Of a stretch of 60,354 nucleotides of DNA, positions 1-49,897 are shown one piece after another. Numbering within the stretch: position 1 is the first letter of the stretch; the number at the start of each line of letters is the position of its first letter. The position numbers were made by a program, and so were the translations under genes. Origin of the DNA: a virus (taxonomy: Duplodnaviria; Caudoviricetes); IMG/VR virus record IMGVR_UViG_3300037520_000542, positions 1-60,354 of that record. The stretch is one strand, 5' to 3'. The notes under the pieces are model-generated. The model worked only from the letters and a program-made list of their open reading frames with translations. It did not search any database and had not been told where the DNA came from.

Positions 1-127
1 AGTTCGTGGCCCGCCGCGAAGGCGGAATCCCGCTCTCGGTCGGTACCGTGAAGCGGAAACCCTTGCGGCGTAAGGATGGAACGCGGGGGATGAAGGAGCG
101 GCCCCCGAAGCCCCCCACTCGCGCGCG
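1..127. repeat. Terminal direct repeat, copy 1 (identical to 60228-60354)
   Basis: Exact 127-nt match between the two window ends; 127 is a common assembler k-mer, implying a circular contig of 60227 bp. Confidence 0.95.
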
Positions 128-225
128 TGATTAGTTACGTCCCCCTCCTGCAACTTTTCTGAAAACACCTCGATCCCTGCCCGCTCTGACTATCTGCCTC
201 TTTCCCGCCCGTGACGATTGGTGGC

Positions 226-1092
226 ATGGATGTCACCGATCTGCCGGTCAGGTACGACGACAAGTTCGCTGACCGGGTGCAGCGGATGAGTTGGCAGCGA
301 TCCGCCACTGGGTACGCCCGCTACTGCTGGGTGGAGGACGGTCGCGTCCGCTGGGTGTCGATGCACCGGCTCGTCTGGGCGTGGGAGCATGGCTGGGAGA
401 ACGTGCCCCGCTACATCGACCACATCAACGGCGACCGGATGGACAACCGGCTGGAGAACCTGCGTCCGGCCACCCTGTCGCTGAACGCCCACAATGCCCG
501 CCGCAAATCGAGGCATCTCCCGCAGGGCGTTTTCGTCAACAAGGGGTCGGCCCTGAACCCGTACTACTCTGCGATAAACCACCGCAACCGGCTGCATCAC
601 TTGGGGGTGTTCGCGACCGTCGAGGACGCTCGTGCGGCGTATGACCGTGCCCGCTCCCGGATCATGGAGTACGAGGTGGCGATGGCGTGCGGGGAGCCGT
701 GCGAGCCTCCCGTGATCGAGGTGAAGCGTGGTCGTCTCGGTCGCCCTCCGATTGGCGGCGGAGAGACGGCGGTGGCTCTCTACCGTTCCGGGCTGACGGT
801 CAAGCAGGTCGCCTCCCGTATGGGCATCAGTGATCGCACCGCGAGCCGTTTGCTGAGGTCTCTGGGAGTTCCTCTCACTCGCGGGCGGCGAGCCACCGTT
901 GACAGCATCCCCCCGTCCGGTACACTGGACGCCCGTTCAGCATCCCAACAGGAGCAGTCGGATGATTACGGCAACAATCACTGGGAACGTGGGCAAGGAG
1001 CCGACCCTGCGGACGACGCAGAGCGGCAAGACGATGGCGACCTTCTCGGTGGCCTCGACGGAGAAGAAGGACGGGCCGACGACTTGGGTTGA
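226..1092 (+). CDS. HNH homing-type endonuclease with AP2 and C-terminal HTH DNA-binding domains
   Basis: IDHINGDRMDNRLENLR (HNH_3-type), YYSAINHRNRLHHLGVFATVEDARAAYD (AP2-like), GLTVKQVASRMGISDRTASRLL (HTH); start 211 or 226; tail overlaps ssb. Confidence 0.85.
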   Translation: MDVTDLPVRYDDKFADRVQRMSWQRSATGYARYCWVEDGRVRWVSMHRLVWAWEHGWENVPRYIDHINGDRMDNRLENLRPATLSLNAHNARRKSRHLPQGVFVNKGSALNPYYSAINHRNRLHHLGVFATVEDARAAYDRARSRIMEYEVAMACGEPCEPPVIEVKRGRLGRPPIGGGETAVALYRSGLTVKQVASRMGISDRTASRLLRSLGVPLTRGRRATVDSIPPSGTLDARSASQQEQSDDYGNNHWERGQGADPADDAERQDDGDLLGGLDGEEGRADDLG

Positions 1093-1321
1093 GGTCGCCT
1101 GCTTTGACGAGCAGGCCGACATGGTGTCCCAGAGCCTCCACAAGGGCGACAGGGTGGTCGTCACGGGACGGGCGGCTCTGGAGACGTACGAGAAGAAGGA
1201 CGGCTCTCAGGGCTTCTCATTGCGCCTGATGGCGGATGAGGTCGGCAAGTCGCTGCGGTGGCCCAAGCGGCAGGCGGTGGCGGCTGGCGTCGAAGAGGCG
1301 GATGAGGTCATTCCGTTCTAG
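962..1321 (+). CDS. ssb: Single-stranded DNA-binding protein
   Basis: ITGNVGKEPTLRTTQSGK...LHKGDRVVVTG, acidic C-terminus DEVIPF; RBS CAGGAG before ATG 962. Confidence 0.95.
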   Translation: MITATITGNVGKEPTLRTTQSGKTMATFSVASTEKKDGPTTWVEVACFDEQADMVSQSLHKGDRVVVTGRAALETYEKKDGSQGFSLRLMADEVGKSLRWPKRQAVAAGVEEADEVIPF

Positions 1322-1351
1322 TTTCGCGATTCGCGAATACCGAACGCTTCA

Positions 1352-1384
1352 GACCGGCAGGGGAAGGGATGCCCCTGACCGGTC
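1352..1384 (+). terminator. Hairpin downstream of ssb (possible terminator or processing site)
   Basis: GACCGG-CAGGGG...CCCCTG-A-CCGGTC inverted repeat; no U-tract. Confidence 0.35.
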
Positions 1385-1402
1385 GCCACGCACGGAGGTG
1401 TC

Positions 1403-1615
1403 ATGCGGGCCAGCCTGAACTTCACTCTCCCGGACGACCAGTTCGCGTTCGACGCCGCCCTCTCTGGGCAGCGGGCACTGGTGGTGCTGGCCGAGATCGA
1501 CAGCCGCTGCCGGAAGATCATCCAGCACAGCGCGTCGTCAGATGGCGAGGCGGAACTCGCCCGCCGTGTCCGGATGATGATTCCCGCCGACCTGCTGGAG
1601 GTGCTGCATGACTGA
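1403..1615 (+). CDS. Hypothetical phage protein (70 aa)
   Basis: RBS GGAGG; coupled to the next ORF. Confidence 0.75.
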   Translation: MRASLNFTLPDDQFAFDAALSGQRALVVLAEIDSRCRKIIQHSASSDGEAELARRVRMMIPADLLEVLHD

Positions 1616-1979
1616 CGACATCGTGACGCGACTTCGCGGCTGGCACTGGCTGCACCTTTCGAGGATTGGCGAGTTGTTTGATGAGGCGGCAGGCGAGATC
1701 AAGCGGCTGCGAGGCGATGCCGAGATCGCGAGGCTGCGACTGGAGGCGGCGCACGGTGAGGTCGCCCTTCTTCGCGAGGCTATTCACCGTCTTGCTCAAC
1801 AGGACGCCACGTTGTCGGTGAGCGGTGGAAACGTGACCGTGACGATGGACGCCACGCTCAACGACGAGGAGCGTGAGGCGATCTGGACTGTTGCGGAGGC
1901 ATACGCTGAGAACGACGGTGACCCGGATTGCGAGCGGATCGCCAGAATCATGCAAGGGCTGTGGCAGCGGACGAAGTGA
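1608..1979 (+). CDS. Hypothetical phage protein (123 aa)
   Basis: RBS GGAGG; DIVTRLR...EAAGEIKRLR pattern typical of small phage proteins; stop codon forms part of an attC R box. Confidence 0.8.
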   Translation: MTDDIVTRLRGWHWLHLSRIGELFDEAAGEIKRLRGDAEIARLRLEAAHGEVALLREAIHRLAQQDATLSVSGGNVTVTMDATLNDEEREAIWTVAEAYAENDGDPDCERIARIMQGLWQRTK

Positions 1980-2066
1980 GAACGCCAGCGATCAGCGGCA
2001 TCGAACGCAGGAGACGACCATGACAGACGAGGTAGATGAGATGTCCGCTGCATCGCGTGGTTCTCA
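1977..2066 (-). mobile_element. attC: attC site (integron cassette recombination site) B
   Basis: Minus strand: TGAGAAC-CACGC-GAT(G)CAGC-GG(A)CATC...GATG-CC-GCTGATC-GCTGGC-GTTCTCA. AAC/GTT core triplets, 5/6-nt spacers, 8/7-nt L boxes, two extrahelical bases. Confidence 0.88.
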
Positions 2067-2079
2067 ATGGGAGAAGTGA
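2020..2079 (+). CDS. 19-aa mini-ORF starting inside the attC B loop (MTDEVDEMSAASRGSQWEK)
   Basis: RBS CAGGAG at 2008-2013, ATG 2020, stop just before the ATG at 2081. Confidence 0.45.
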   Translation: MTDEVDEMSAASRGSQWEK

Positions 2080-2080
2080 A

Positions 2081-2347
2081 ATGGACGTTGTGAGTCGCAT
2101 CAACCGCTGGCTGGAGGACGAGGACGCGGCCGACGCAGACGAGACGCTGCATGATGCACGCGACGAGATCGTAGCCCTTCGGGCGTTGCTAAAGCGGCAG
2201 AGCGAGGCAGCGCATCAAGCGGTCACAATGATGGGCCGGTACGCCGAGCAAACCGGCTTTCTGCTTGGCGGATTGGAGATGACGGCGGCTGGACACACCA
2301 CAGCCGACAAGGTCTTGAAGGCGCTCAAGGCGAAGTATCGGGACTGA
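2081..2347 (+). CDS. Hypothetical protein, cargo of cassette 2 (88 aa)
   Basis: RBS GGAG; its TGA is the first 3 nt of attC A. Confidence 0.8.
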   Translation: MDVVSRINRWLEDEDAADADETLHDARDEIVALRALLKRQSEAAHQAVTMMGRYAEQTGFLLGGLEMTAAGHTTADKVLKALKAKYRD

Positions 2348-2435
2348 GAACGCGGAAGATGATCGGCCCGCGAAGGAGGGGCCATGCTATGACGAACGAC
2401 GAAGATCGCGGGTCCGATCCATCGACTGGTTCTGG
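2345..2435 (-). mobile_element. attC: attC site A
   Basis: Minus strand: CCAGAAC-CAGTC-GAT(G)GATC-GG(A)CCCGCGA...TCGCGGG-CC-GATCATC-TTCCGC-GTTCTCA; same geometry as site B with covarying L-box sequence. Confidence 0.9.
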
Positions 2436-2640
2436 CTCGGGGTTGCCAGCACACCTGATTCAGCCGGAGTGGACGGAACTAGCGCGAGCCGTGACGTTCT
2501 TTGGCGTGCCGCTAGATAGACTCAGCCGTGACGAGTTGATTGCCAACATTGGATACCTCCTTACTCAAGTTGAGGATGTGAAGCGGATGCACCGCGCAAC
2601 GCTGGAAATCTTGAAGGAGAGGCACCCGGTTTCTTGGTAG
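2389..2640 (+). CDS. Hypothetical protein, cargo of cassette 1 (83 aa)
   Basis: RBS AAGGAGG and ATG lie in the attC A loop; TAG abuts CCAGAAC. Confidence 0.75.
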   Translation: MTNDEDRGSDPSTGSGSGLPAHLIQPEWTELARAVTFFGVPLDRLSRDELIANIGYLLTQVEDVKRMHRATLEILKERHPVSW

Positions 2641-2678
2641 CCAGAACCAGCGTTTATGCAGCAGCCTGCTGCGTAACA
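2641..2678 (-). mobile_element. attI-like site heading the cassette array
   Basis: Minus strand: TGTTACGCAGCAGG-CTGC-TGCATAA-ACGCTG-GTTCTGG; has an R box and an L-like box but no distal R'' arm. Confidence 0.6.
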
Positions 2679-2748
2679 CCCCTGTCGCCGCGAGCGACGT
2701 GACCCCAGAACGTGTCCCAAAAAAGACGAACCGGCGACACTTCCCAAT

Positions 2749-2892
2749 ATGAGTAGCCCGCTCATCGCCCTGACCGGAGTCATCTACCTCTACGTCTCGG
2801 TGGAGCAGTTCTGGCGCGGCAATCCCGGCATGGGGATCGCCTATCTGGGGTACGCCTTCGCCAACGTGGGCCTGTTTCTTATGGCCCGGTAG
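2749..2892 (+). CDS. Small two-helix membrane protein (47 aa), absent from the ORF track
   Basis: MSSPLIALTGVIYLYVSVEQFWRGNPGMGIAYLGYAFANVGLFLMAR. Confidence 0.75.
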   Translation: MSSPLIALTGVIYLYVSVEQFWRGNPGMGIAYLGYAFANVGLFLMAR

Positions 2893-2903
2893 GGCGGACG
2901 CCG

Positions 2904-2914
2904 GGACATAAGTC
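2904..2914 (+). promoter_or_regulatory. Putative late-promoter motif GGMCAYRARYC
   Basis: GGACATAAGTC, 17 nt before ATG 2932; related copies at 3222, 6298, 14387, 22357, 42199. Confidence 0.55.
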
Positions 2915-2931
2915 ATTCGGAGGACGAGAAC

Positions 2932-3201
2932 ATGCAGCCGCGACAGATGTACGAAGTCGCTGATGGTGGTCCGGAGATCATGCGCCAGACGGTGCCGGGC
3001 TACGGCTACATCCGCAAGTCCACGCCGACAGAACAGATGGTGGGTGGCATGGGTCGCGGTCAACTCCCGTCCGCCGACATGCTCATGGACGTTGGTGGCG
3101 ATGCCTACACGCAGGGCCGGTCGCTTCTTCGCGGCCTTCTTGGTCGCCCGGACCCAGACGGACTCCAGAACCGACGCGACACGAGCGTTTGGGTTCAGTA
3201 G
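2932..3201 (+). CDS. Hypothetical protein (89 aa)
   Basis: RBS GGAGGA; follows the promoter-like motif. Confidence 0.7.
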   Translation: MQPRQMYEVADGGPEIMRQTVPGYGYIRKSTPTEQMVGGMGRGQLPSADMLMDVGGDAYTQGRSLLRGLLGRPDPDGLQNRRDTSVWVQ

Positions 3202-3221
3202 GCCCGTTGCGGGGAGCCGAA

Positions 3222-3232
3222 GGCCATAAATC
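3222..3232 (+). promoter_or_regulatory. Putative late-promoter motif
   Basis: GGCCATAAATC upstream of GTG 3252. Confidence 0.55.
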
Positions 3233-3251
3233 CCTGTGAAGGGAGACTGGC

Positions 3252-5048
3252 GTGGGCATAGGCGACTGGATCAGCAACGCAGCGAAGTTTGCCAAGAAGG
3301 CACCCCCAGCCGTCCCGGCGGCGCGGATGGCGGAGTTGGCGAAGAAGGCCCGCGAGGCCGCACCTGCCCAGTCGGCATCTCTGGCCGACAAGTTTCCGCT
3401 GCTGGATGACGCTGCCGTTCCGCAAGCCATCGACATGGCGTCAGTCTCGTACCCAAAGAAGGGTCAGTTTCCATTCATTCCGGGCGTCAAGTGGACGCAA
3501 AGCGACGGCTATTTCGTTCCCGACAACCCGCAACTCGTGGCGGAAGCCATTGCCGGTGGGTTCATCGAACCGCCAATGGGCGTCAAGCCTGTAAGCGGAA
3601 ACGCCGGGCCCGTAGGCAGCGTGCCCAAGCAAGCCGACAAAGGCCCGGAGGGCTACACGCTCGCGCCGCTCGATGATGACGACCCAGCAGACGTAAGCGA
3701 TGGCGGATTTGAAAGTCAAGATTACGCCAGCCGGGTGGCCTCCGACTTGGGCGTGATTGACTGGGACGAGATTTTAGGTGGGTTTGTTGACCCTGACAGC
3801 GGCGACGCGCTGGTTGGAAAGAAGTTGAAAAAGAAGATGAAAGAGGCCAAAGAGATGGCCGGGACGCTTGGCATTTACTGGCCGGGCGATCCAAAGCCTG
3901 TTGACAGGAGGCCGGAAGAGAACATCCGCGACTACATCGCCCGCCTTCGCGAGATGGACAAGAACGAGGAGTACAAGCCTGCGGTCGCAAAGGCCGTGTC
4001 CGACCTTGAGGAGCGACTGGCTGGTCACGTCAGTAAAGGAAACATCCGGCCTCTAGAGCCCGGCTCCGAAGACGTGATCTCCGCCACCACGACTGCCGAT
4101 AAGGTGGACGCCGCCAAGAGAGGCACTCGGAATCAGATTACTCGGGACTACATCGACTACCTCGCCTCCAGCGGCGTGGATCAGAGGACATTAGACGACA
4201 TCGCGTCCGGTGCCCTGCCGATGGACCCGCAGTCACGGATGGCTCGTGCCGAGCAGCACGACCTCGATCCGAAGGCGATCTGGTTCCGCTGGGACAGGCC
4301 GCTGAAGACCGACATGAAGGGCTTTACCGGCGCGGCACTGGCACAGCCAGAACTGCGTCGATACAAGAGCGGCCAACTGGGGTTCATTGACCTCGCGCCC
4401 AGCAAGGAAGGGCTGGTCTACACGTCGCACAACCCGGGCTTCGCGAAGCGCGGCGTCCAGATGCCGTATGACGAAGTGATTTCCTACCCCCTGCTGGGCC
4501 CGAAGGAGGGCATCGCTGGCATCGACAACATGCCGCCCTCCGCCTACGACACATTTCGCAGCCGCATGCAATCGCTGCTGCTCAAGAAGTTCCCTGACAA
4601 GCATCTGTATCCTGAGAATCCCGGCATCCGTCGCGCTCACATGCGAAGCCATCATCTGGCAGAGCCGTTAGTGGAGCCGCAGTATGTTCAGGGGCCGCTG
4701 CGCGAGGCCACGCTCGACTCGCTGAGACGAATAGGGCCGAGTAGTCATGCGACGCACGAGGCGCAGGGAACTATTCCGCACTTTTCGACCGCAGAGGATC
4801 GCAAGGTCTACACTGAGCCGCTGATGGCATCGGGCGCGAAGGGCACCCTTGTCAGGGACGAGACGGGCTTTGCCACTGCGTTCACGCCCGCAGGGGCGAG
4901 GATGCTGCGGCGCGCCGACCTTGCCCCGCTCGACACTCGATTCAAGGGTGCGAGAAACCTTCTCCAGTCGCTGCTCGTTCCGGCTGTGATTGCGGGCGGT
5001 GCGTCCAGCCTGCCCTCGACCGATAGCCGACGCACGGAGAATCGCTAG
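3252..5048 (+). CDS. Protein with a putative divergent ADP-ribosyltransferase-like (ART-PolyVal-like) C-terminal domain
   Basis: LPMDPQSRMARA..D....WFRW / GLVYTSHNP / SYPL / GAKGTLVRD / LDTRFKGARNLL parallels the motif order of phage polyvalent-protein ART domains. Confidence 0.5.
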   Translation: MGIGDWISNAAKFAKKAPPAVPAARMAELAKKAREAAPAQSASLADKFPLLDDAAVPQAIDMASVSYPKKGQFPFIPGVKWTQSDGYFVPDNPQLVAEAIAGGFIEPPMGVKPVSGNAGPVGSVPKQADKGPEGYTLAPLDDDDPADVSDGGFESQDYASRVASDLGVIDWDEILGGFVDPDSGDALVGKKLKKKMKEAKEMAGTLGIYWPGDPKPVDRRPEENIRDYIARLREMDKNEEYKPAVAKAVSDLEERLAGHVSKGNIRPLEPGSEDVISATTTADKVDAAKRGTRNQITRDYIDYLASSGVDQRTLDDIASGALPMDPQSRMARAEQHDLDPKAIWFRWDRPLKTDMKGFTGAALAQPELRRYKSGQLGFIDLAPSKEGLVYTSHNPGFAKRGVQMPYDEVISYPLLGPKEGIAGIDNMPPSAYDTFRSRMQSLLLKKFPDKHLYPENPGIRRAHMRSHHLAEPLVEPQYVQGPLREATLDSLRRIGPSSHATHEAQGTIPHFSTAEDRKVYTEPLMASGAKGTLVRDETGFATAFTPAGARMLRRADLAPLDTRFKGARNLLQSLLVPAVIAGGASSLPSTDSRRTENR

Positions 5049-6298
5049 TGGCCGACCCCAACGAACTCCGGGCCAAGATGATCCTCAAGGACATCTACGC
5101 CCGTCATGGCATCGACCCCTCCATGCCGCTTGAGGAGCAACTCAATGCGGTGCAGATGAGTGCCATGATGGGTGGCAACGTCCAGTCCGCATGGTCGAAC
5201 CCGGAGGAGCGTGCCCGTGCGAGGGCGGAGTACGCCGCAAAGGGCAGGACCGACCAAGAGAAGGAGCAGCGGTGGCAGCAGTCGGCGCATCTGCTCGACC
5301 CGGACACCTACCAGTACCAGCAGAACGCAGGCCGAGACATCGACTTCCTGCTGGCGATGGATCAAGCCTCGCGCCGCGACCCGGATGCGGCGAGGGGTGC
5401 TGCGGCTGTTGGAGCGGCTGGCGGAACGTCAGCGTACGCACAGACGCCCCAGTCCGGAGTTGCCGAAGCACTGGCCTATTGGGACTCCAGCAACAACAGT
5501 CCGCTGTTCAGGGAGTCGCTGACCACCTCCAACTACCAGTCGCAGAGCCCGCTGCTCATGGGCCTGCTCAATGCCACGACGAACCCCGATGTTCCCGCCG
5601 GGAACTACATGAACTTCTCGGAGGTGATCCCCGACTGGGTTCGCATGTGGGGCTCTGGCGAGACGGGCTCCAGCGGCGAGGCGTACGAGGCGGCTCAGGC
5701 CAAGCGGATGGCGACCAACCGCTACCGTCTTTCGTCTCCCTCGCCAGTCCTTGACCTCCCAGACGGCGCAGATGTGGTGGCAAAGGACAATCGCATCCGG
5801 GAACTGCGTGACCTGACGCAGAAGGCAGACATCCCAAGCGCCTCGCAGCGGTGGGCGAGAACGGCAGGGGTCGTGCCGCCGGGATGGCTTACGGATTCGC
5901 TGGACTTTGCGACCAGTTGGCTCGACCCGACTGCCGTGATCCCAGTTGGCGGGGTTGCGGCCGGTGCCGCGAAGGCTGGAGTGAAGGGCAGCGTCAAGCC
6001 GCTACTGGCGGGCCTAAGTTCCGGGCTGTCCAACTTTGCGTCAGACATGGGCGTTGAGCAAGCCATCGGTCACGGCATCGGCGGCGTGACCGGAGGTCGC
6101 CCTGAGCGCTCTTGGAAAGAGTGGGCGTTAGGCGACTGGAGCCCCAGCCAAAAGAGCGAAGAAGAGGTTGCCGCATCCCGTCAGGCACGCACGCAACTCT
6201 ACGACCAACTCAAGGACGACGACAGAGTATCGAGAGCCGACTCGGAGGCGTACAAGGGTTTGGGACTGCGGGTCCATGTCCCGTACTCATACCGGTAG
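5048..6298 (+). CDS. Probable virion or ejection-type protein (416 aa)
   Basis: Ala/Gly-rich, LDFATSWLDPTAVIPVGG motif; lies in the structural block. Confidence 0.5.
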   Translation: MADPNELRAKMILKDIYARHGIDPSMPLEEQLNAVQMSAMMGGNVQSAWSNPEERARARAEYAAKGRTDQEKEQRWQQSAHLLDPDTYQYQQNAGRDIDFLLAMDQASRRDPDAARGAAAVGAAGGTSAYAQTPQSGVAEALAYWDSSNNSPLFRESLTTSNYQSQSPLLMGLLNATTNPDVPAGNYMNFSEVIPDWVRMWGSGETGSSGEAYEAAQAKRMATNRYRLSSPSPVLDLPDGADVVAKDNRIRELRDLTQKADIPSASQRWARTAGVVPPGWLTDSLDFATSWLDPTAVIPVGGVAAGAAKAGVKGSVKPLLAGLSSGLSNFASDMGVEQAIGHGIGGVTGGRPERSWKEWALGDWSPSQKSEEEVAASRQARTQLYDQLKDDDRVSRADSEAYKGLGLRVHVPYSYR

Positions 6299-6308
6299 GC
6301 CACGAATC
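6298..6308 (+). promoter_or_regulatory. Putative late-promoter motif
   Basis: GGCCACGAATC before the scaffold-capsid operon. Confidence 0.45.
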
Positions 6309-6325
6309 CCGAAGGGAAGGAACTC

Positions 6326-7465
6326 ATGTCGGACGACGTTGCGGTTGCGGATGTTGACGAGTCGGTCGATTCCACGCCGGACACCAGCACTCCCGAGACG
6401 AGCGTAGCCAGTGAGCCTGCATCTTCAGCATCGCCGCAGGCTTCGGCTGCACCACAGCAGTCGGTGTGGGACGCCTTCAAGAATCTCGATGAGTTTCGCG
6501 GGCAAGACGACATTGCAATCGCTCGCCGCCTCTATGCCTCGATGGAGCGAGAGAAAGCAGCAACAAACGCTCTTGCCCAGTACCAGCAGTACGTCCCCAT
6601 CGCCCAGCAGTACCTCCAAAACCGAGAACCCTTTGAGCAGTTCCAGCAGCACCGAGAATCCTTCCAGCGATGGCTCGCCTCCCAGCAGCAGCCCGCCGCC
6701 CAGCAAGTAGAGAAGACCTCTGCTTCGGAGGCGATGAAGAAGTGGTGGAACCCTCCGGAGGTTCGCGACTCCTACCGGCAGTACCTCGTCAAGGACGAGA
6801 ACGGGCGGGAGGTCATCTCTCCGGATGCCCCGCTCGACGCCAAGCACGCCCTGTACGAGTACCAGAAGTACAAGGCCGACTTCGCCCAGAAGTTCCTCAC
6901 CAACCCGGAGGAAGCGCTGGGGCCGATGATCCAAGAGATCGCCCAGCGGCAGGCCCAGCAGATCGTGGAGTCGCAGTTCGCGGAGGTGCATCAGCAGCAG
7001 TACGTCTCCGGGCTGGAGCAGGAGAACCGCGACTGGCTCTACGACCAGAGCGGGCGACCGACCGAAGAGGGGCTCGCGGCCCAGCGCTACATTGACGAAG
7101 CCGCGTCGATGGGGATTCAGGGCGCTGAAATGCGGTGGGCGTACGCTACGAAAATGATCGAGCGTGACCTGCTTGAGCGGCTGCGAACGATGGGTGCCGA
7201 GCAGACGCAGCGAAGTGCGTTTGAGGCTGGATTACCGCAGCAGATGCACGCTGCCGCCATGCAGCAGCAGGCCCCTGCTGCGCCTCTTTCGCAACCCGCC
7301 TCTGCGCCAAGTAAGGCCGAGAGGGACATAGAGTTCCTTAGAAGGGAAGCGTCCCGCAGTCCGAGCAAGGCTGCGGGCAACGACGACCCGAGAACCCCGC
7401 AGGCTCCACTGACGTTTGAGCAGCGACTCGCACGTCAGTTGGCCCGAGACGGCATCACCTCCTGA
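6326..7465 (+). CDS. Probable capsid scaffolding protein
   Basis: Acidic disordered N-terminus, Gln-rich coiled coil, directly upstream of the capsid gene. Confidence 0.7.
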   Translation: MSDDVAVADVDESVDSTPDTSTPETSVASEPASSASPQASAAPQQSVWDAFKNLDEFRGQDDIAIARRLYASMEREKAATNALAQYQQYVPIAQQYLQNREPFEQFQQHRESFQRWLASQQQPAAQQVEKTSASEAMKKWWNPPEVRDSYRQYLVKDENGREVISPDAPLDAKHALYEYQKYKADFAQKFLTNPEEALGPMIQEIAQRQAQQIVESQFAEVHQQQYVSGLEQENRDWLYDQSGRPTEEGLAAQRYIDEAASMGIQGAEMRWAYATKMIERDLLERLRTMGAEQTQRSAFEAGLPQQMHAAAMQQQAPAAPLSQPASAPSKAERDIEFLRREASRSPSKAAGNDDPRTPQAPLTFEQRLARQLARDGITS

Positions 7466-7482
7466 AGCGCGAAAGGTAAGAC

Positions 7483-8634
7483 ATGGCGTCGTCAGTTGAC
7501 TGGGCTCGTTCTATCGGCACTACCCTGACCCTGCATCTCCGTGAGGAGGAGCAGACGACCTTCCGTCGCTACAAGGTATTCGCCGCGCTTCAGGCCAACG
7601 GCAACGTGGCGATGAATCAGGGCGGTCGCGGTTTCGACTGGCAGGTCCGCTGGCGGAACGTCCCGGTTTCGACGTACACGGGCGAGTCGCCGCGAGTCTT
7701 CGCACGCCACGCGCTCTGGCAGCGCGCGACCCTCCCGTATCGCGGGTACAGCGTGCAGGATCAGATCACCAAGCGGGAGATGCTGGAGAACAGGGGTCAG
7801 GCCCAACTCATCGACGTGGCCGGGAAGATGGCGAACCGTCTTCGCGAGTCGATGGAGCAGCACCTGAGCCGTGAAGTTTTCATTGACGGCGAACAGGCTG
7901 GGAACGAGAACCGGTGGCACGGCCTTGAGTCGATGTTCGGCATCGACGGCACCGTGAATGTCGGCACCGGTGCCAAGCGAGGCTCTGGCGCTTCGCCCGG
8001 TTCCGGCTCCGCCCCTGACCCGTTCGGCTTCCCGACCGACACCTACGCGGGCCTCGACACCGCTCTTGGCAAGTACGCGGGCTCGCAGTTGGCATCGACC
8101 GGCTCGTGGCCTTCCGTGCCGGTCGATCCGGAGTACGACTTCTGGTCGCCCCTCGTCTGCAACTACACCAGCACCTACTTCGGTACGGCTGCTGCGACTC
8201 CGCTGCTGACGTGGCGGCAGAACTGCATCGAGGCGATCCGGCTCTCGGTGAACCACGCCAAGCGGAACGACACGAAGGAGAATCAGATCGACATGATCCT
8301 CCTCGACCGCTCGATGTACGTCGAGTTCCTCAACCGGCTCGACGCCCGCGAGCGTGCCATCGTCACCAAGACGAACGGCCTGAAGTCCTACGGCTTCGAC
8401 ACCGTCGAGATCGACGGCATCGAGGTGGCGAGCGACTACGGTTGCCCGTCCGGTGTCGGTTACGCCCTCTCCATCGGCAACATGGAGATGAAGGTGATGA
8501 CCGGGCAACTGATGGAGGCGGAGGGACCGTTCTACAACGAGGAACTTTCCGCGTATAGGTACAGCGTTTCGTGCCTCGCCAACATCAAGATGAAGAGTCC
8601 GCGCAACTTCGTGAAGTTCGCCGCCATCGCCTGA
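7483..8634 (+). CDS. Major capsid protein
   Basis: 383 aa; position after scaffold; FIDG...RWHGLESM and C-terminal ANIKMKSPRNFVKF pattern typical of HK97-fold capsids. Confidence 0.85.
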   Translation: MASSVDWARSIGTTLTLHLREEEQTTFRRYKVFAALQANGNVAMNQGGRGFDWQVRWRNVPVSTYTGESPRVFARHALWQRATLPYRGYSVQDQITKREMLENRGQAQLIDVAGKMANRLRESMEQHLSREVFIDGEQAGNENRWHGLESMFGIDGTVNVGTGAKRGSGASPGSGSAPDPFGFPTDTYAGLDTALGKYAGSQLASTGSWPSVPVDPEYDFWSPLVCNYTSTYFGTAAATPLLTWRQNCIEAIRLSVNHAKRNDTKENQIDMILLDRSMYVEFLNRLDARERAIVTKTNGLKSYGFDTVEIDGIEVASDYGCPSGVGYALSIGNMEMKVMTGQLMEAEGPFYNEELSAYRYSVSCLANIKMKSPRNFVKFAAIA

Positions 8635-9558: not shown

Positions 9559-9834
9559 ATGGATAAGCATGGCGACCGTGTCAGGAAACTGAAGTCTGGT
9601 GCATGGGCTCGCAAGGAGGGGCAAGACCCGGAAGGCGGGCTGAACGCCGCTGGGCGTGCGGCCTACAACCGCGAGAACAACGCCAACCTCAAGCCGCCGC
9701 AGCCGGAAGGCGGGCCGCGAAAAGAGTCATTCTGTCGAAGGATGAAAGGCATGCGAGAGAAGTTGACCAGCAAGGAAACGGCCAACGACCCCGACAGCCG
9801 GATCAACAAATCCCTGCGTGCGTGGGACTGCTGA
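9559..9834 (+). CDS. Conserved basic phage protein (DUF6321-like)
   Basis: AWARKEGQDPEGGLNAAGRAAYN...RKESFCRRMKGM...DPDSRINKSLRAWDC. Confidence 0.75.
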   Translation: MDKHGDRVRKLKSGAWARKEGQDPEGGLNAAGRAAYNRENNANLKPPQPEGGPRKESFCRRMKGMREKLTSKETANDPDSRINKSLRAWDC

Positions 9835-10538
9835 TGAGCGACAAGACCTGCACCGACTGCGGCAACGCGCTCCCGCAGACCACCGACAACTTCCGCCGCA
9901 AGCAGGACGGCACTTGGGATGCCCGCTGCCTCATCTGCCGTGCGAAGGTCAATCGCGGCAAGAAGAAGAAGCGGAAGGAAGCCGACATGCGTGCCATCGA
10001 GGATGGTGCGGTCAACACCTTCCTTCAGGGTGCAACGAGGGGCGGCGACAACATCCCGCACTCCAGCGAACTGCTGGAGCGACTGATGGAGTATTTCGGC
10101 GGCTCGTCTGGGTTCGCCGCCATGATGGTCAAGCAGTATTTCGACTCTCCTCCGGGAGGCTCGCACCGCACGAAGTTGCTGGAGGGCGTCGTGCGTCTTG
10201 TCACGAAGAACACCGAACTGGGCGGGGCCAAGAAGCCGCTGGCCCAGTGGACGGACGAGGAGATCGAGGCGGAACTTGACTCCCGCCTGCAAAAGATCGC
10301 CATGAGTTTTGAAGGGAGACTGCTCAATGTCCAAGTCACGCCGCAAACCCCCAGCGATATCGCCGCTGCCTTCGGTCAAGCGTTTGGGCACGTTCCAGCG
10401 GGACGAGTTGAAGGAGATGCAGGCGGAACTGGCGGGACGCCGGATCGAAGCCTTGCGGCTCTACCGTCCGACCGACCAGCAGGAGGCGGTGCATCAGTGC
10501 CGGGCGAGCGAGATTCTGGTGCTGGGGGGGAATCGTAG
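9834..10538 (+). CDS. Probable terminase small subunit with N-terminal Zn finger
   Basis: CxxC...CxxC, WTDEEIEAEL motif, directly upstream of and overlapping terL. Confidence 0.5.
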   Translation: MSDKTCTDCGNALPQTTDNFRRKQDGTWDARCLICRAKVNRGKKKKRKEADMRAIEDGAVNTFLQGATRGGDNIPHSSELLERLMEYFGGSSGFAAMMVKQYFDSPPGGSHRTKLLEGVVRLVTKNTELGGAKKPLAQWTDEEIEAELDSRLQKIAMSFEGRLLNVQVTPQTPSDIAAAFGQAFGHVPAGRVEGDAGGTGGTPDRSLAALPSDRPAGGGASVPGERDSGAGGES

Positions 10539-30868: not shown

Positions 30869-33800
30869 ATGAGCCTCCCGCTGTTTGAGCCCGCACCGAG
30901 ACGCAAGCGGCCAGCGGGCTACATCCCGCTGTTCGATGAGGCCACGCTCGCGGACGAGCCCGTCATGGCGGACAGCGTCACGCCAGAGGAGCGTGACTCC
31001 ATTCTCCAGAGCGTTGGAGAACTGACCGGCGGCACCGTCTCCCGCGTGGCCGACCTGCTCGCGATTCCCGGCGACTACACTCGCGGCTTCCTCACTGGTC
31101 GTCCCGGCGACCGCGTGACCGGCCGAGAGATGCTGCGATCCGCTGGGCTCGTCGGCTCGCAAGACAACTGGGGCAACTTCTTTGGCGGGCTCGCAGCCGA
31201 AACCGTTACCGACCCGCTCGCCCTCCTGTCCGGCCCAGCGAAAGCCCTGACCCCAGCAGGCAATGCAGCAAAAATGGCTGGGGTGCTGGACAATGCCGCC
31301 ACCGCTGCCACCCGGAAGGCGATTGCGGAAGGGCTCGACAACGTGGCCCTGCCGATGGTCGCCAGACGCAATAGGGAGGCTCTGGAAGCCACTGGCCGCA
31401 ACCTGACGACATTCGACCCGGCAACTGTCGGTCGCCCTCTGTACGGCAAGCGGACGGGCCAGCGGGCGGTATCGCTGGACGACCTCATCCGCTACTCCGA
31501 CGACCAAGTCGGCACGGAGCGGTCGCTTCGCGGCGTGCTGGGGGATGCCGAGTTTGAGCGGCTGCGTGGCGAACGCGGCTTGTCCAAGTCCTTCGGATTT
31601 GGTGCCCCTTTCTCGGAGCCGTCCGTTGTGGGCGACTTTCTGGGCGAGCGGTTTGGCGACACCTACGCCGACGCCCTCGACACGCTGGGTGCTGCATACC
31701 GATGGAGCCCTGTCGGCAGAGCGAGCGCTGCGATGTTTGACAGCAAGGCTGGCGGTGCCCTCGACGCCGAAGATCAACTGACCAACATCGCCAACCTCAC
31801 CGCGAAGGAGCGGATGGGTGGCATCGCCACCGGTGCCCACACCTACCAACTCGCCCGCCTGCGTGCCCAGCACCCGGACGTGTTCAGCGAGGAAGGCAAT
31901 CTCGCGTTGGGCCGGTACATCGAGGGCTACAGCGCCGCAGAGTCTGGGGCTCCCAGCGTGATGACGGCTGCGGACAAGGCATACGTCGAGAGTCGGCCCG
32001 CACTCAAGGAGTACGCCGACAACTGGATCAACAACCGGCAGGACTACCTCAGCGAGTCGAGGCGCGCAGGGCTCTCGGCCAACGAGATGCGTGACGCCTA
32101 CGGCATCGACTACCTGCCCCGCAAAGCGGAGGCGTTGCTGGAGATGGAGGGCAAGGCCAACCGCAAGGTCGGCAACGCCCTGTCCGCAATGACGGGCGAC
32201 ATGATGGGCCGCACCGCCGCAATGCAGGTTCCGGGCGGTCGCGACACCATCATCGAACTGTCCCGAGACAAGTTCGTTTCCGGCGGAAAGCGTCTCGCCG
32301 CCACTGACGATGATGCCGCCCAGCATTTGGTGGGCGTGCTGAACGCCAAACTCGCTCCGGGCCAGCCGCCCATCGAGATGAAGCAGGCCCGCAACCTCGC
32401 TCGCGTGCTGCACTCGCTGCCAGCGGAGGTCGTGGATCGTGCGCCGCTGTTCGGACAGCACCCGACCGAGATGATCGGCTCGTACATGCGCGGCCGCAAC
32501 GAAGCGATGGCGACGGCCAGAACGCTCACGGACTCGCTTGCCACGATGGCGACCAACCAAGCCTACGGCGAGGTTCCCGGCGGCAGGCACATCTCGCTCG
32601 CTGACGCCATCGAGCGGCTGGGGCTCAAGACGTACGACAACGCCAACTTCGACGTGCTGGATGACTTCGGCAACGCCGCTCGCCCGCTGCAAGGGGCGGC
32701 AAACAACGTCCGCCAGCGGCTCGCCCAGATATTCGGCGGCGACCCCGACGCGATGAAACTGTCGGAGTTCTCCATCCCGGAAGAACACGTCAACCGGCTG
32801 CTGCGTGCCCGCGATGCGTTCAGCAATGGCGAGGTGGCCGGGAAACTGGTGCAGTATCTGGACTGGTACACGCAGGCGTGGCGTGGCTCGATCTTGACGT
32901 GGCCCGCCCGAGCGGTGCGTGATCTCTATTCCGGAGCCGTCAGCAACTGGCTGGAGGGTGCCCTCAGTGCCGATGGCGTCATGGCGGCGAGGGCGCTGAT
33001 GCAGGAGGGGCCGCAGAGCCCTCGCTTCTTGAGGACGCTCAAGAGCATCTCGCGGTACGCAGGCGACGACGGGGTCGAGTTGTTCTACGCCGACCTCGCC
33101 CAGAGCGGGCTCATCGGGGCGAATCAACTCAACGAGGCAGGGGCCAGCGTGCTGGGGAAGGGGGCTCTGTCCGCACTGCCGGGCGATACGCCCATCACCA
33201 CAGGCACCATTCTCAGCGAGTTGGCACCACAATCCGGCAGGTCATGGCAGCAGTTCGGCAAGGACTTCGGGACGTGGCGGTCCAAACTGAATCCGCTGGC
33301 CGAGACGCGGAACCCGATCCTCCGGGCTGGCGAGCAGATGAACACGCTGACGGACGGCATCAACCGCCTCAGCGGGTACATCGAACTGCTCAAGCAGGGG
33401 TACGATCCGCAGGCGGCGGCGAGGGCGATGAAGCGTGCCCATGTGGACTATTCGTCGCTCACGGAGTTTGAGAAGAAGTACCTGAAGGGAATCTTCCCAT
33501 GGTACTCCTTCCAGAGCCGCATCTTCCGTGAAGTGCTGCGGCAGTTATCGGAGCAGCCGGGCGGACGGTACGGCCAACTGCTTCAGGCGTCGGAGGCTGT
33601 GCAGGATGAGGGCGAGGGAACCTACGTCCCGTCCGGGCTGCGGTCACAGTTTGCGTTTCCGATCCCAGAGGAGTTCGGTGGCGTCCCGTCTCCGGGCACG
33701 CAGGCGTACCTGACCGACATCGACTTTCCCGGCTTCGACCAGATCAACATGATCGCCACTCCGGGCACGCTCAGCGGTGCCGCTGCGGGGACTGGGCGGC

Positions 33801-34351
33801 AGGTTGCGATGCAACTGCACCCGCTGTATCGCATGGCAGTCGAGGGAATGGTCAACACCGACCTGTTCACCAACCGCCCACTGGGAGACTCCACGTCCTC
33901 GCTCGACGCCATCGCCCGCAGCGTGACGGGCGACCAGACCGCCGACGTGCCGTTCCTCGTGGAGAAGACAGTCGAGAACCTGCCGTTCGCTGGTCGTCCA
34001 CTCTATGCCGCCCGCTCGCTGCTCGACACGCGAGGCGACCGCCCGCTCTCCGACCGCGTGTTCACCACCGGGTTCAACGCACTGACAGGCGTCAAGCGAC
34101 GAACGGTCGCGGAGCAAGACGCACTGGCCGATGCGATGCGTGAGATCGAGACGAGCATCGACCCGTACACCCGTGAGTTCAAGCAGGTCTTCATACCCGA
34201 AGCGATGCAGCCGATGGTGCCGAACTGGGCACTGCGTCGTCTGGCCGTTCACCGGGCACTGGGCCGCGAGCGCAGGGAGGCACGCAAGCCCGCTGCGAAG
34301 AAGGGCAAGAAGCGGCAGTCCGACACCGGTGCGGTGACGCTATTCGATTAG
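30869..34351 (+). CDS. Large probable ejection protein (1160 aa)
   Basis: AETVTDPL motif; VDYSSLTEFEKKYLKGIFPWYSF motif typical of the terminal ejection proteins of podoviruses. Confidence 0.7.
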   Translation: MSLPLFEPAPRRKRPAGYIPLFDEATLADEPVMADSVTPEERDSILQSVGELTGGTVSRVADLLAIPGDYTRGFLTGRPGDRVTGREMLRSAGLVGSQDNWGNFFGGLAAETVTDPLALLSGPAKALTPAGNAAKMAGVLDNAATAATRKAIAEGLDNVALPMVARRNREALEATGRNLTTFDPATVGRPLYGKRTGQRAVSLDDLIRYSDDQVGTERSLRGVLGDAEFERLRGERGLSKSFGFGAPFSEPSVVGDFLGERFGDTYADALDTLGAAYRWSPVGRASAAMFDSKAGGALDAEDQLTNIANLTAKERMGGIATGAHTYQLARLRAQHPDVFSEEGNLALGRYIEGYSAAESGAPSVMTAADKAYVESRPALKEYADNWINNRQDYLSESRRAGLSANEMRDAYGIDYLPRKAEALLEMEGKANRKVGNALSAMTGDMMGRTAAMQVPGGRDTIIELSRDKFVSGGKRLAATDDDAAQHLVGVLNAKLAPGQPPIEMKQARNLARVLHSLPAEVVDRAPLFGQHPTEMIGSYMRGRNEAMATARTLTDSLATMATNQAYGEVPGGRHISLADAIERLGLKTYDNANFDVLDDFGNAARPLQGAANNVRQRLAQIFGGDPDAMKLSEFSIPEEHVNRLLRARDAFSNGEVAGKLVQYLDWYTQAWRGSILTWPARAVRDLYSGAVSNWLEGALSADGVMAARALMQEGPQSPRFLRTLKSISRYAGDDGVELFYADLAQSGLIGANQLNEAGASVLGKGALSALPGDTPITTGTILSELAPQSGRSWQQFGKDFGTWRSKLNPLAETRNPILRAGEQMNTLTDGINRLSGYIELLKQGYDPQAAARAMKRAHVDYSSLTEFEKKYLKGIFPWYSFQSRIFREVLRQLSEQPGGRYGQLLQASEAVQDEGEGTYVPSGLRSQFAFPIPEEFGGVPSPGTQAYLTDIDFPGFDQINMIATPGTLSGAAAGTGRQVAMQLHPLYRMAVEGMVNTDLFTNRPLGDSTSSLDAIARSVTGDQTADVPFLVEKTVENLPFAGRPLYAARSLLDTRGDRPLSDRVFTTGFNALTGVKRRTVAEQDALADAMREIETSIDPYTREFKQVFIPEAMQPMVPNWALRRLAVHRALGRERREARKPAAKKGKKRQSDTGAVTLFD

Positions 34352-35155
34352 TTGCGGCGGCTGAGGGATGTCCCTCCGCACCTGCGTCCAGTCGATGTAG
34401 GCACGCTCTGCGAGCCCCATCGTTCGGTGCCCGAGATGAAGCCTGCCCTTGCCGGGATGGAGCATCTCGATGTGCGTGGCACTGGATCGCCTCAGCCATT
34501 TACTCGACCCGCCGATGTTCAGGCTCTTGAGGTAGGCGAACATCACCTTGTTGCCACCGCTTGCCGTGATAGCCCACGCCAGCACCGTCCGGTCAGTGGA
34601 GAGTGACAGCATCTGCTTGACAGCATCGACGCACGGCTGCGACAGAAGTTTCGGCAGCGGGTCGCCCGTCTTGTGCTGCGTCCACCACAGAGTGTCGCCG
34701 CTGAAGTTGCCTGCCGTCATCCTCCAGAGGTCGCCACGCCTCGCCCCCGACTCGTAGCCGAGCAGCAGCCAGCACCGGAGGAATAGCCCCACCGGGCACC
34801 CCGAGCGAAGACGCTTTTCATCCAGCGAGAAAGTCCCCTTGACAGCCGTACAGCACTGTTCTAAAGTCCACGCCCTAGTTGGCGGTCGATGGGCCTTGAT
34901 CTTGACGATTCCTCTGGGGATCGACTTCACTAGCCCGCGATCAACGGCGTAGTTCCACAGCACCATGAGCATGGCACGCTCATACGAGACTGTTACGGAG
35001 GACACGACTTCCAGCCGCTGCTTCAGGTAGCGGTTGCAGGATGGGGCCGACAACTCTCCCAAGTTGCGGGCCAGCCGTCGCAGGCTGTGCGAGTAGAGCC
35101 TGCTGACAGCACGTTCACTGAGATACCTTTCCGCCAAACGAGACGCTGAAATCAT
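34340..35155 (-). CDS. Tyrosine recombinase
   Basis: YESGARRGDL (R), HKTG (K), KWLRRS (HxxR variant), HLGH, ERAY (Y); start uncertain (35155 or upstream). Confidence 0.85.
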   Translation of the reverse strand: MISASRLAERYLSERAVSRLYSHSLRRLARNLGELSAPSCNRYLKQRLEVVSSVTVSYERAMLMVLWNYAVDRGLVKSIPRGIVKIKAHRPPTRAWTLEQCCTAVKGTFSLDEKRLRSGCPVGLFLRCWLLLGYESGARRGDLWRMTAGNFSGDTLWWTQHKTGDPLPKLLSQPCVDAVKQMLSLSTDRTVLAWAITASGGNKVMFAYLKSLNIGGSSKWLRRSSATHIEMLHPGKGRLHLGHRTMGLAERAYIDWTQVRRDIPQPPQLIE

Positions 35156-36140
35156 GGACGCACCCCTCATCGAGCAGGCCGAAAGTATCGAGGACATGCA
35201 GGGCATCAACCCCCCTGCAATGAGCCCCGATAGTGGCAACCCGCTCGCTATGGGCGCACAAGCAGCATGTAGAGCCGGGCTTTCACGCCCCTACATGGTT
35301 CCTGTGCGACCGGTCGATATTCGGCGACAAGAGACGAACGCCGACTACCACGCTGACGAAACCCACAGGTCTTGCAGCCGAGTCAAAACGCTCCTTGACT
35401 CGACCACCCTGTACCACCAGCGGTACGTCGCCAAAACCCTCCCGCCCTACCAGAGCAGTGCCCTCGATCACGGCACTCTCATGCACCGGTGGCTGGAGGA
35501 AGGCGATGCCTTCCTTGAGACGCTGGTGTCTCCTCCGCCAGACACACTAACAGCCACCGGACAGGTTGGCAAAGAAGCCAAGAAGTGGGCTGAAAACGAG
35601 GCTCCCGCAGGGGCGACAGTCGTCGGCCCGAAGGAGCGTGCCCAGATTCTGGCGGAAGTCGCCGCCATCAAGGCGAACCCTGCCGCCGTCGAACTGATCG
35701 ACGCCATCATCGACCACGAGGTGTCGGTGCGATGGACGACGCCGCAGGGCGACCGGCTGAAGTGCCGGTACGACGCACGCACTCCCGACGTGTGGATCGA
35801 CCTCAAGACGACGAGCGACGAGGACATCCGCAGTCAGTGGCCCGCGAGCGTCATTCGCTTCAAGTACCACCTCCAAGATGCGTGGTATCGGCTGGGCATG
35901 GAGGCGTGTGGCCTTGAGCCACGCCCGCTGCACTTCATCGTCATCAGCACCAGCATCTCGCACGACTGCCAAGTCGTGACGCTGCCCGAAGTCGTCGTTG
36001 CCGAAGGGCGGCGGCTCATGGACCGGGCTCTCGCTGACCTTCGCCTGCGTGAAGACCTCGACTGGTGGTTGCCGGACCATCACGGCGAGGTGTTTGAGTT
36101 GGAGTTTCCGGCGTACTTACTGAGGAGTTTCCAGTCGTGA
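35154..36140 (+). CDS. RecE/ExoVIII-like PD-(D/E)xK exonuclease (DUF3799-like)
   Basis: HGTLMHRWL, LKCRYD, IDLKTT, YHLQDAWY; true start may be downstream. Confidence 0.9.
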   Translation: MDAPLIEQAESIEDMQGINPPAMSPDSGNPLAMGAQAACRAGLSRPYMVPVRPVDIRRQETNADYHADETHRSCSRVKTLLDSTTLYHQRYVAKTLPPYQSSALDHGTLMHRWLEEGDAFLETLVSPPPDTLTATGQVGKEAKKWAENEAPAGATVVGPKERAQILAEVAAIKANPAAVELIDAIIDHEVSVRWTTPQGDRLKCRYDARTPDVWIDLKTTSDEDIRSQWPASVIRFKYHLQDAWYRLGMEACGLEPRPLHFIVISTSISHDCQVVTLPEVVVAEGRRLMDRALADLRLREDLDWWLPDHHGEVFELEFPAYLLRSFQS

Positions 36141-36793
36141 AGACCCAATCGCTTTGGACTGAGGCCAGCGAGCATCTCGACCAGTTGTTTGCGGCACACG
36201 CCGCTGCTCTCGGTCAGTTGAAGAACGCACCGCGAACGTGCGTCAGCCACTTCGCGAAGAAGGGGCCGGACGGCAAGCCGATCCCCGACTACGCGGACCT
36301 CGCCACCGTGTTCGACACGATCCGTGCGGCCCTCGCCGCCAACGGCCTGAGCGTCACGCAGACGTTCATGCCGTTCGGAGAGGACGGCTCGACGCTGATG
36401 CTGGTGACGACGCTTGGTCACAAGAGCGGCCAGTTCCAGCGGTCGTACCTGCCGATGAAGGCGAACGTCCCACCGCAGCAGTTGGCGTCCACCGCCACCT
36501 ACCTGAAGCGTGTGGCGTTGTGTGCGGTCGTGGGCATCGCTGCCGACGACGACGACGACGGCCAGCAGGCCAACGCCACGCACGCCACTGCGACGGTGAG
36601 CGACGAGCCGCGAATCGTCGCTGCCCTCCAGAAGAAGTTGAAGGCGGCGAAGGACGCGAAGGGCAGGGCGGCAGAGATCGCCCGTGCCCAGAAGGGTCTG
36701 TCAGAGGGGCTTCTGAGCCAGAAGTCGTTCGACCAGATCAAGGACTTGGCTGACGCACTGGACGAGCAGCAGGAGCCAGCGTTGGCGTCCTGA
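36137..36793 (+). CDS. erf: ERF-family ssDNA annealing protein
   Basis: YADLATV...NGLSVTQ...LGHKSGQ...STATYLKRVAL..VGIAADDDDDG. Confidence 0.9.
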   Translation: MKTQSLWTEASEHLDQLFAAHAAALGQLKNAPRTCVSHFAKKGPDGKPIPDYADLATVFDTIRAALAANGLSVTQTFMPFGEDGSTLMLVTTLGHKSGQFQRSYLPMKANVPPQQLASTATYLKRVALCAVVGIAADDDDDGQQANATHATATVSDEPRIVAALQKKLKAAKDAKGRAAEIARAQKGLSEGLLSQKSFDQIKDLADALDEQQEPALAS

Positions 36794-49896: not shown

Positions 49897-49897
49897 G

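Follow-up and report, generated by a model that had tools for sequence, protein, structure and literature searches.

A probable two-cassette attC cluster of the Planctomycetota type, with its genes on the bottom strand, in an uncultivated phage

Integrons are generally viewed as gene-capture devices of bacteria, and the clusters of attC sites reported from phages are recent and few. A locus near the left end of the virus record IMGVR_UViG_3300037520_000542 raises the question of whether such sites can also be part of a phage genome and, if so, in which orientation they carry their genes. This record is a complete virus genome of 60,354 nt with direct terminal repeats and was analysed over its whole length (the window). 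Two small genes, called A and B, are each associated with a hairpin bounded by AAC and GTT boxes (sites S1 and S2, Table 1). The original prediction, made from the letters of the DNA, held that these are integron cassettes of inverted design, whose genes run antisense to attC, take their ribosome-binding site and start codon from the attC loop, and belong to a pool adapted to phages. Our analysis indicates that positions 1977-2647 most probably constitute a cluster of attC sites lacking an integrase (CALIN), with two cassettes, of the type present in Planctomycetota chromosomes and with its genes on the bottom strand.

The attC family and its chromosomal counterparts

Sites S1 and S2 share a common plan: a base of 5-6 bp (AGAAC/GTTCT), a spacer of 5-6 nt on each side, a GAT/ATC stem, a bulged C, a stem of 6 bp, a bulged T, a further stem of 4-6 bp, and a loop of about 36 nt. 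In S1, the left box TGAGAAC (1977-1983) faces the right box GTTCTCA (2060-2066), the spacers occupy 1984-1989 and 2055-2059, and positions 1990-2002 pair with 2040-2054, leaving T2044 and C2051 bulged; the successive pairings are GAGAAC/GTTCTC, GAT/ATC, CAGCGG/CCGCTG, and CATC/GATG. S2 is composed of the boxes TGAGAAC (2345-2351) and GTTCTGG (2429-2435) and of stems in which 2358-2370 pairs with 2407-2423, with T2413 and C2420 bulged. In both sites AAC pairs with GTT (1981-1983 with 2060-2062, and 2349-2351 with 2429-2431) and the extrahelical bases lie opposite the AAC arm, that is, in the 3' arm of the + strand. Each loop contains a Shine-Dalgarno motif followed by a start codon, CAGGAG upstream of ATG 2020 in S1 and GAAGGAGG (AAGGAGG) upstream of ATG 2389 in S2. 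The boxes, stops and loop signals described in the original prediction are all found at the positions that it gave, and the TGA of the first TGAGAAC is the stop codon of the upstream open reading frame (ORF).

Taken as single sequences these sites are weak. Whichever strand of S1 or S2 is folded as DNA, the z values relative to shuffled sequences are -0.5 to -2.9, which is not clearly better, and the pattern AGAAC-N60-90-GTTCT is found three times in the window against 0.9 expected, a number that 6 of 100 shuffles also reach. The strength of the assignment comes from relatives, which covary. Relatives of genes A and B in IMG/VR led to 12 loci and, in these and the window, a rule-based scan detected 33 hairpins, every one of them on the gene strand. 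An alignment of 23 sites (nine phage loci and the window) has 97.1% of its 410 cells paired, slid controls reaching 26-45%, and shows double changes at 10 of the 18 pairs, with none of 500 shuffles equalling it; the AAC/GTT pairs are invariant in all 23 sites. A covariance model built from phage sites, R1, recovers S1 and S2 in the window and arrays of up to seven sites in 2.7 kb in relatives. Its only further match in the window (33756-33842, 17.2 bits, E 0.016) was rejected since it has no AAC/GTT boxes. A box pattern with a gap of 40-70 nt had also been tried and matched two unrelated places. Rfam, which holds no attC family, gave no family match but only sub-threshold chance matches elsewhere.

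The exact pattern of the conserved parts occurs in at least 140 viral and at least 136 bacterial stretches. A phage set of 113 distinct sites was obtained from the best 150 of 251 matches, and a bacterial set of 126 distinct sites from the best 150 of 248; some loci overlap, and duplicates were removed by sequence. The AAC/GTT triplets are present in 112 of the 113 phage sites and in 123 and 126, respectively, of the 126 bacterial ones, the bulged T in 100 phage and 96 bacterial sites, and the bulged C in 106 and 99. Throughout the family the unpaired spacer between box and stem measures 5-7 nt and the variable end ranges from loops of about 5 nt (short variants of 43-50 nt in total) to loops of about 36 nt. 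Bacterial sites fold alike, with 96.1% of the cells paired in an alignment fitted to the model, and share with the phage sites the same plan of about 90 nt: AAC box, spacer of 5-7 nt, GAT(C/G)A, stems, bulged T, 6 bp, bulged C, ATC, spacer, and GTT box. The sets differ in the box, which is AGAAC and GTTCT in 95 and 101 of the phage sites but in only 30 and 27 of the bacterial ones, where CGAAC/GTTCG boxes dominate; unlike the chromosomal type, the phage boxes let TGA or TAG stops sit in or beside them. Two other traits were discarded: the near-absence of G-T pairs (2 of 410 cells) was dropped as a DNA-level signature, the bacterial set having many, and the purine skew of unpaired parts (0.64 in phage and 0.49 in bacterial loops) is uninformative for the strand.

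The bacterial members connect the family to integrons. Among the matches listed, 73 of the 79 bacterial loci belong to lineages that we take, from genus to phylum, to be Planctomycetota. A whole-genome search with R1 in five Planctomycetota genomes yielded 46, 18, 27, 12, and 2 matches, each cluster using one strand; in G001, a Pirellulaceae chromosome, four loci contain 51 matches, one array being entirely on + and the other entirely on -. Integrase genes were called at the curated TIGR02249 cut-off of 265 bits. The two arrays of G001 and those of G002 and G004 end 0.4-2.4 kb before IntI genes scoring 396-439 bits (Table 1), and the IntI beside the + array of G001 carries Phage_integrase and SAM_4 domains. 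Since one-strand arrays of these hairpins stand beside intI, the hairpins are to be regarded as attC sites. The members beside intI also deviate in the box, ACGAAC/GTTCGT and CAGAAC/GTTCTG occurring alongside GCTAAC/GTTAGC, so the deviation is a trait of the Planctomycetota type. A Planctomycetes-specific attC model has been published (PMC8352920).

The locus of the window resembles the Planctomycetota chromosomal integrons in its one-strand array, its cassette-sized spacing, and the presence of an orphan AAC box at the end that, in the chromosomes, faces the integrase gene. The orphan box of the window, where the array meets the phage backbone, is built like the orphan AGCTAAC box located between the last cassette and intI in G001. 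A third attC hairpin considered at 2630-2720 was rejected, this region being the orphan box plus a small backbone hairpin. The latter (2654-2676, 11 bp, arms TTATGCAGCAG and CTGCTGCGTAA, 3-nt loop) follows the orphan box immediately and is kept with small changes at the same backbone position in the related loci L005 and L002; its possible roles include that of a terminator or of a component of an attI-like landing site. The differences from the chromosomal integrons are that the phage possesses neither intI nor attI, that its genes are on the bottom and not on the top strand, and that its loops contain a Shine-Dalgarno motif and an ATG.

Other features were observed within the G001 arrays. 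At 2,959,637-2,960,513 (9637-10513 of locus L289) there are four near-identical attC sites spaced 261-262 nt, that is, tandem mini-cassettes in which the sites are separated by only about 170 nt and a convincing ORF is lacking. An element with a 308-aa tyrosine-recombinase-like ORF and a 698-aa ORF has been inserted more than once in both arrays (L289/L290 14306-16608 and 23800-26102; G001 4,646,544-4,650,799), and an IS-like 450-aa ORF is found at L290 359-1711.

Table 1. Positions of the features at the phage locus and of the chromosomal arrays that end near an integrase gene.
Sequence	Feature	Position	Strand	Remarks
Window	HNH_3 endonuclease	211-1092	+	C-terminal resolvase-type helix-turn-helix; left genome end
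Window	SSB	962-1321	+	About 650 nt upstream of the attC cluster
Window	Upstream ORF	1608-1979	+	123 aa, no Pfam/PHROG family; its TGA stop (1977-1979) forms the start of the S1 left box
Window	attC site S1	1977-2066	+ (bottom strand)	R1 model 93.2 bits, E 1.5e-26; covariation
Window	Cassette A unit	1983-2350	+	Between the putative cuts after the second A of AAC
Window	Leader ORF	2020-2079	+	19 codons, MTDEVDEMSAASRGSQWEK; starts in the S1 loop and reads through the 3' arm
Window	Gene A	2081-2347	+	88 aa, unknown family; own GGGAGAAG ribosome site; third-position bias
Window	attC site S2	2345-2435	+ (bottom strand)	R1 model 78.9 bits, E 4.8e-22
Window	Cassette B unit	2351-2646	+	296 nt, starting at the C of one AAC and ending with the AA of the following one; absent in L005
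Window	Gene B	2389-2640	+	83 aa, unknown family; starts in the S2 loop
Window	Orphan left box CCAGAAC	2641-2647	+	After TAG 2638-2640; array end, junction with phage backbone
G001	Array	2,955,272-2,978,143	+	intI 2,978,577 (+), 434 nt beyond, 405 bits
G001	Mirrored array	4,633,145-4,662,487	-	intI 4,632,710 (-)
G002	Array	up to 8,807,546	+	intI 8,809,994 (+)
G004	Array	from 1,030,557	-	intI 1,028,680 (-)

Strand assignment and reversed gene polarity

The integron integrase cuts the bottom strand of attC where A meets C in 5'-AAC-3', and the arm that carries the extrahelical bases is, in the bottom strand, the one facing the AAC and, in the top strand, the AAC arm itself (PMC5027507). On the + strand, both sites of the window carry AAC in the 5' arm and the bulges in the 3' arm, so that + is the bottom strand; the cut in S1 would fall between A1982 and C1983. 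In the chromosomes, intI is on the strand recognised by the model and is transcribed away from the array, as in canonical integrons, and the cargo (for instance NADAR, Imm50, cytochrome P460, and DUF2262) is on the opposite strand. The phage cargo is on the model strand itself, and genes A and B do not have the canonical arrangement of an ORF on the top strand upstream of its site.

Both genes are coding on +, as indicated by codon-position bias and by stops in the minus frames. Among six gene A homologues, the variable columns at codon positions 1, 2, and 3 number 23, 20, and 61, and in every homologue at least one minus frame contains stops, so that in none are all three open; gene B has stops in all minus frames. 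Real cassette genes on the minus strand, which would have contradicted the reversed polarity proposed in the original prediction, are thus not found at this locus, and the polarity stands. Its further claim that both N-termini are translated attC arms is only half right. It holds for gene B, in which the 3' arm of S2 and its right box supply residues 9-15 (SDPSTGS). It fails for gene A, which starts at ATG 2081, outside S1, and stops at TGA 2345-2347, within the left box of S2, since ATG 2020 opens only the leader ORF of 19 codons. The stop of this leader (2077-2079) lies 1 nt before the ATG of gene A (TGAAATG, 2077-2083), a disposition that suggests termination-reinitiation coupling between the two. 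In other phages, the leader seen in the S1 ORF is fused to full-length cargo.

The reversal extends to the family. An in-frame ATG is found in the loop of 95 of the 113 phage sites and in 5 of the 126 bacterial ones, and the full combination of loop ATG, Shine-Dalgarno motif, and a bottom-strand ORF of at least 40 aa is found in 81 phage sites against 3 bacterial ones. The three bacterial exceptions are on contigs of 3.3 and 13 kb from metagenome-assembled genomes, which may themselves be phage. In the segments delimited by adjacent sites, the model strand holds the longest ORF in 37 of 58 phage cases and the opposite strand in 19, and in bacteria the opposite strand holds it in 55 of 70. The 82 phage ORFs that start in a loop include 13 with DUF551, three C5 (DNA_methylase), three N6/N4 (N6_N4_Mtase), and one Dam-like DNA methyltransferases, and their cargo domains begin directly behind the leader.

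Relatives of gene A can be preceded by a short-loop site (43 nt), by half a site, or by a left half fused to codon 2. Short-loop sites without a ribosome-binding site exist, so the loop signals are optional; the incomplete sites show that sites also decay. In L010 (2949-3031), for instance, a decayed site has its left arm and loop joined straight to codon 2 of gene A, and in L007 (2946-3000) only the right half of a decayed site is kept upstream of gene A.

Cassette mobility and alternative readings

Mobility was analysed by nucleotide comparisons; protein clustering around the sites is blurred by the shared leaders. In alignments of phage loci with at least 85% identity, the left end is located within an attC site or 30 nt to either side in 60 of 135 cases and the right end in 50 of 131, although these regions make up 10% of the sequence. 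The main breakpoint peaks coincide with the left AAC box, where offsets 0-4 collect 30 left ends and offsets 5-9 collect 23 right ends. Six gene A homologues are identical up to the end of TGAGAAC, beyond which each takes a different course. In L005, the TGAGAAC that follows gene A runs into the backbone that in the window follows the CCAGAAC after gene B; the window is therefore equivalent to L005 plus one 296-nt cassette (2351-2646) inserted after the second A of AAC. Cassette boundaries fall at the A|C junction of AAC, with the limit that the exact base of the cut cannot be read from BLAST ends. In contigs from lake-water metagenomes, S1 reaches several-fold the depth of its flanks, its boxes join at least four upstream and at least six downstream contexts (which are contexts and not events), and short-loop S1 variants are also present.

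The cassettes are not tied to one phage lineage. Homologues of the window terminase are found in 4 of the 25 site-bearing viral records and in 3 of the 12 near-complete ones, and gene A is present at 77-91% identity in some phages that have no detectable homologue of this terminase. No match to PF00589 was found anywhere in the complete 60,354-nt record, and IntI was found in none of the 25 related viral records, 12 of which are at least 90% complete. As the phage has no integrase, and thus not the intI and attI of a complete integron, the cluster is classified as a CALIN.

Several observations weigh against this interpretation. The boxes do not follow the extended consensus RYYYAAC/GTTRRRY, TGAGAAC being combined with GTTCTCA in S1 and with GTTCTGG in S2, and the bulged bases, a T and a C located about 16 and 23 positions from the end, depart from the G/T pattern of studied sites. 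Genome G003 (the handle of L188) contains 27 sites and no IntI above the cut-off; these matches are arranged in three one-strand clusters, for example at 3,285,036-3,313,298, and represent either chromosomal CALINs or the companions of a diverged integrase. The bacterial loci were first fished with GAAC/GGTTC boxes and the model was trained on phages, so that the two sets are not unbiased samples, and two further alignments (A2 and A3) were fitted to the model. Finally, the right box together with the 3' arm gathers a smaller peak, with 14 right ends (offsets 85-89) and about 9 left ends, which accounts for roughly a third of the breakpoints linked to attC, and the same cargo is found behind at least four different leaders. 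These right-box breakpoints and leader swaps are not products of bottom-strand cuts by IntI, and homologous or top-strand exchange must therefore also act.

The last two observations are those expected if the sites were relics of attC, shuffled by general homologous or single-strand-annealing recombination with their conserved arms of about 20 nt as homology, and the window encodes suitable functions, an ERF protein (36137-36793) and a PD-(D/E)XK nuclease (35154-36140). T4-type promoter-stem-loop cassettes are said to use their conserved arms for shuffling in this way. For the phage cluster this reading is unlikely. Breakpoints would not be expected to peak at a left box of 6 nt (53 ends) when the longer conserved 3' arm gathers only about 23, an AAC flanks the 296-nt insertion at either end, as expected of an integrase product, and compensatory changes maintain a structure and bulges that mere homology tracts do not need.

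A second alternative is that the hairpins act only in RNA, as exapted attC-like stems that tune the translation or stability of small genes without any action of an integrase. The Shine-Dalgarno motif and ATG in the loop of 81 of the 113 phage sites, the upstream stop codon overlapping the 5' arm, the position of every site on the transcribed strand, and the lack of an integrase in the phages all agree with it. Nevertheless, we consider it quite improbable, and the same applies to its variants, in which the Shine-Dalgarno motif and AUG are held in an open loop, translation is coupled to the upstream stop, or the stem is a processing site. An RNA element would keep needlessly the attC features of DNA (invariant AAC/GTT and T and C bulges as in the chromosomes), genes with a start of their own are still preceded by short-loop sites that lack a ribosome-binding site, both the breakpoints and the exact insertion of a cassette are located after the second A of AAC, and no Rfam family matches. 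Small accessory genes of other phages can likewise begin with repeated elements, structured or conserved, such as the T4-type promoter-stem-loop "mobile regulatory cassettes" and the start-associated sequences of cluster K mycobacteriophages, which are regarded as markers of module borders or as aids to translation. Unlike the present attC members, these elements have, to our knowledge, no link to a site family associated with an integrase.

The accidental capture of a piece of a host chromosomal array, to which the occurrence of the site family in host chromosomes and the description of phages with chromosomal integron fragments (PMC9892861) could point, is hardly credible, since the genes are on the strand opposite to chromosomal cargo, the loops have been rebuilt with a Shine-Dalgarno motif and ATG, the prevailing box type differs, and the cargo, with DUF551 and DNA methyltransferases, is phage-typical. 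The view of the original prediction, a phage-adapted pool, is thus borne out by the loop starts, by this cargo, and by cassettes common to phages with unrelated terminases; the homologues of gene A that it asked for are likewise found in phages. RNase III sites, translational operators, REP/MITE-like repeats, and N4-type hairpin promoters had been considered in view of the GTTCT boxes and the lack of a recombinase, and were overturned by the arrays beside intI.

Under the preferred reading, that of a CALIN of the Planctomycetota type, a phage cassette consists, in the direction of transcription, of the attC site, the rest of the ORF, and a stop within the following AAC box or immediately ahead of it. 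The variable loop of most phage cassettes has been filled with a Shine-Dalgarno motif and ATG, the 3' arm and right box being translated as a common leader, "S-x-A-S-x-G-S". Gene B is of this kind, and gene A keeps its own start just behind the site. The + strand probably folds during phage replication. If the host expresses an integron integrase at that time, the folded + sites would recombine with each other (attC x attC) or with a GTT site of the backbone, and whole cassettes could be gained, lost, or swapped among co-infecting phages, with host IntI as the putative catalyst. In the messenger, the hairpin may affect translation, conceivably by presenting the ribosome-binding site, as the original prediction proposed. 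Whether Planctomycetota phages share in this manner a mirror-image cassette pool across unrelated lineages by means of the host integrase, with attC serving as 5' leader, ribosome site, and N-terminal codons, is a tentative proposal that we place somewhat below an even chance.

The mirror-image design may have arisen by top-strand recombination, which inverts a cassette (PMC5027507). Given this reversal, phage cassettes that entered a host array would be antisense to the array promoter, and host cassettes that entered a phage would be antisense to phage transcription. Since landing is antisense either way, the two pools would share one recombination machinery and remain functionally separate.

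Genomic setting and significance

All genes around the cluster are on the + strand, with small ORFs following SSB. The folding of attC hairpins is reportedly controlled by SSB. Pfam and PHROGs give no family for the cargo ORFs of the window, and a megablast search of positions 1-8000 found no match in isolate phages. Elsewhere in the window there are an ECF-type sigma factor (47530-48072) and, on the minus strand at 48964-51397, a DUF2201 metallopeptidase/VWA protein beside a 381-aa ORF.

Compared with the canonical cassette of mobile integrons, the phage units are alike in being bounded by AAC/GTT, with one ORF and one site, and in the imperfect hairpin with extrahelical bases, central spacer, and variable loop (PMC5027507). 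They differ in that the site precedes the ORF and is partly translated and in that the extended consensus is not followed, and their expression would depend on read-through transcription and not on Pc. Clusters of attC sites without intI have already been described in virulent phages by Qi et al. 2023 (PMC9892861), with DNA methyltransferases as cargo; IntegronFinder detected 17 CALINs with GTTRRRY boxes in 10,705 isolate genomes, and IntI1 recombined five of the six phage sites tested. In contrast to those CALINs, the present ones belong to one phylum-specific type with reversed gene polarity; the words "Planctomyc", "antisense", and "start codon" do not occur in that text, according to a word search. 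A literature search, with subscription journals and supplements outside its range, found neither cassettes of reversed polarity nor start codons in the loops of phage attC sites.

One phylum-specific attC type is thus present in at least 140 viral stretches, including phages with unrelated terminases, and it places this uncultivated 60-kb lake-water phage with putative Planctomycetota hosts. If a host integrase drives the system, virulent phages would exchange accessory genes, DNA methyltransferases included, by site-specific single-strand recombination, and the extended box consensus would be dispensable in nature. In that case, attC finders that assume an ORF followed by its site would mis-annotate such arrays, and these phages would offer a natural system in which to examine how the choice of strand, translation across an attC hairpin, and the silencing of cassettes influence one another.

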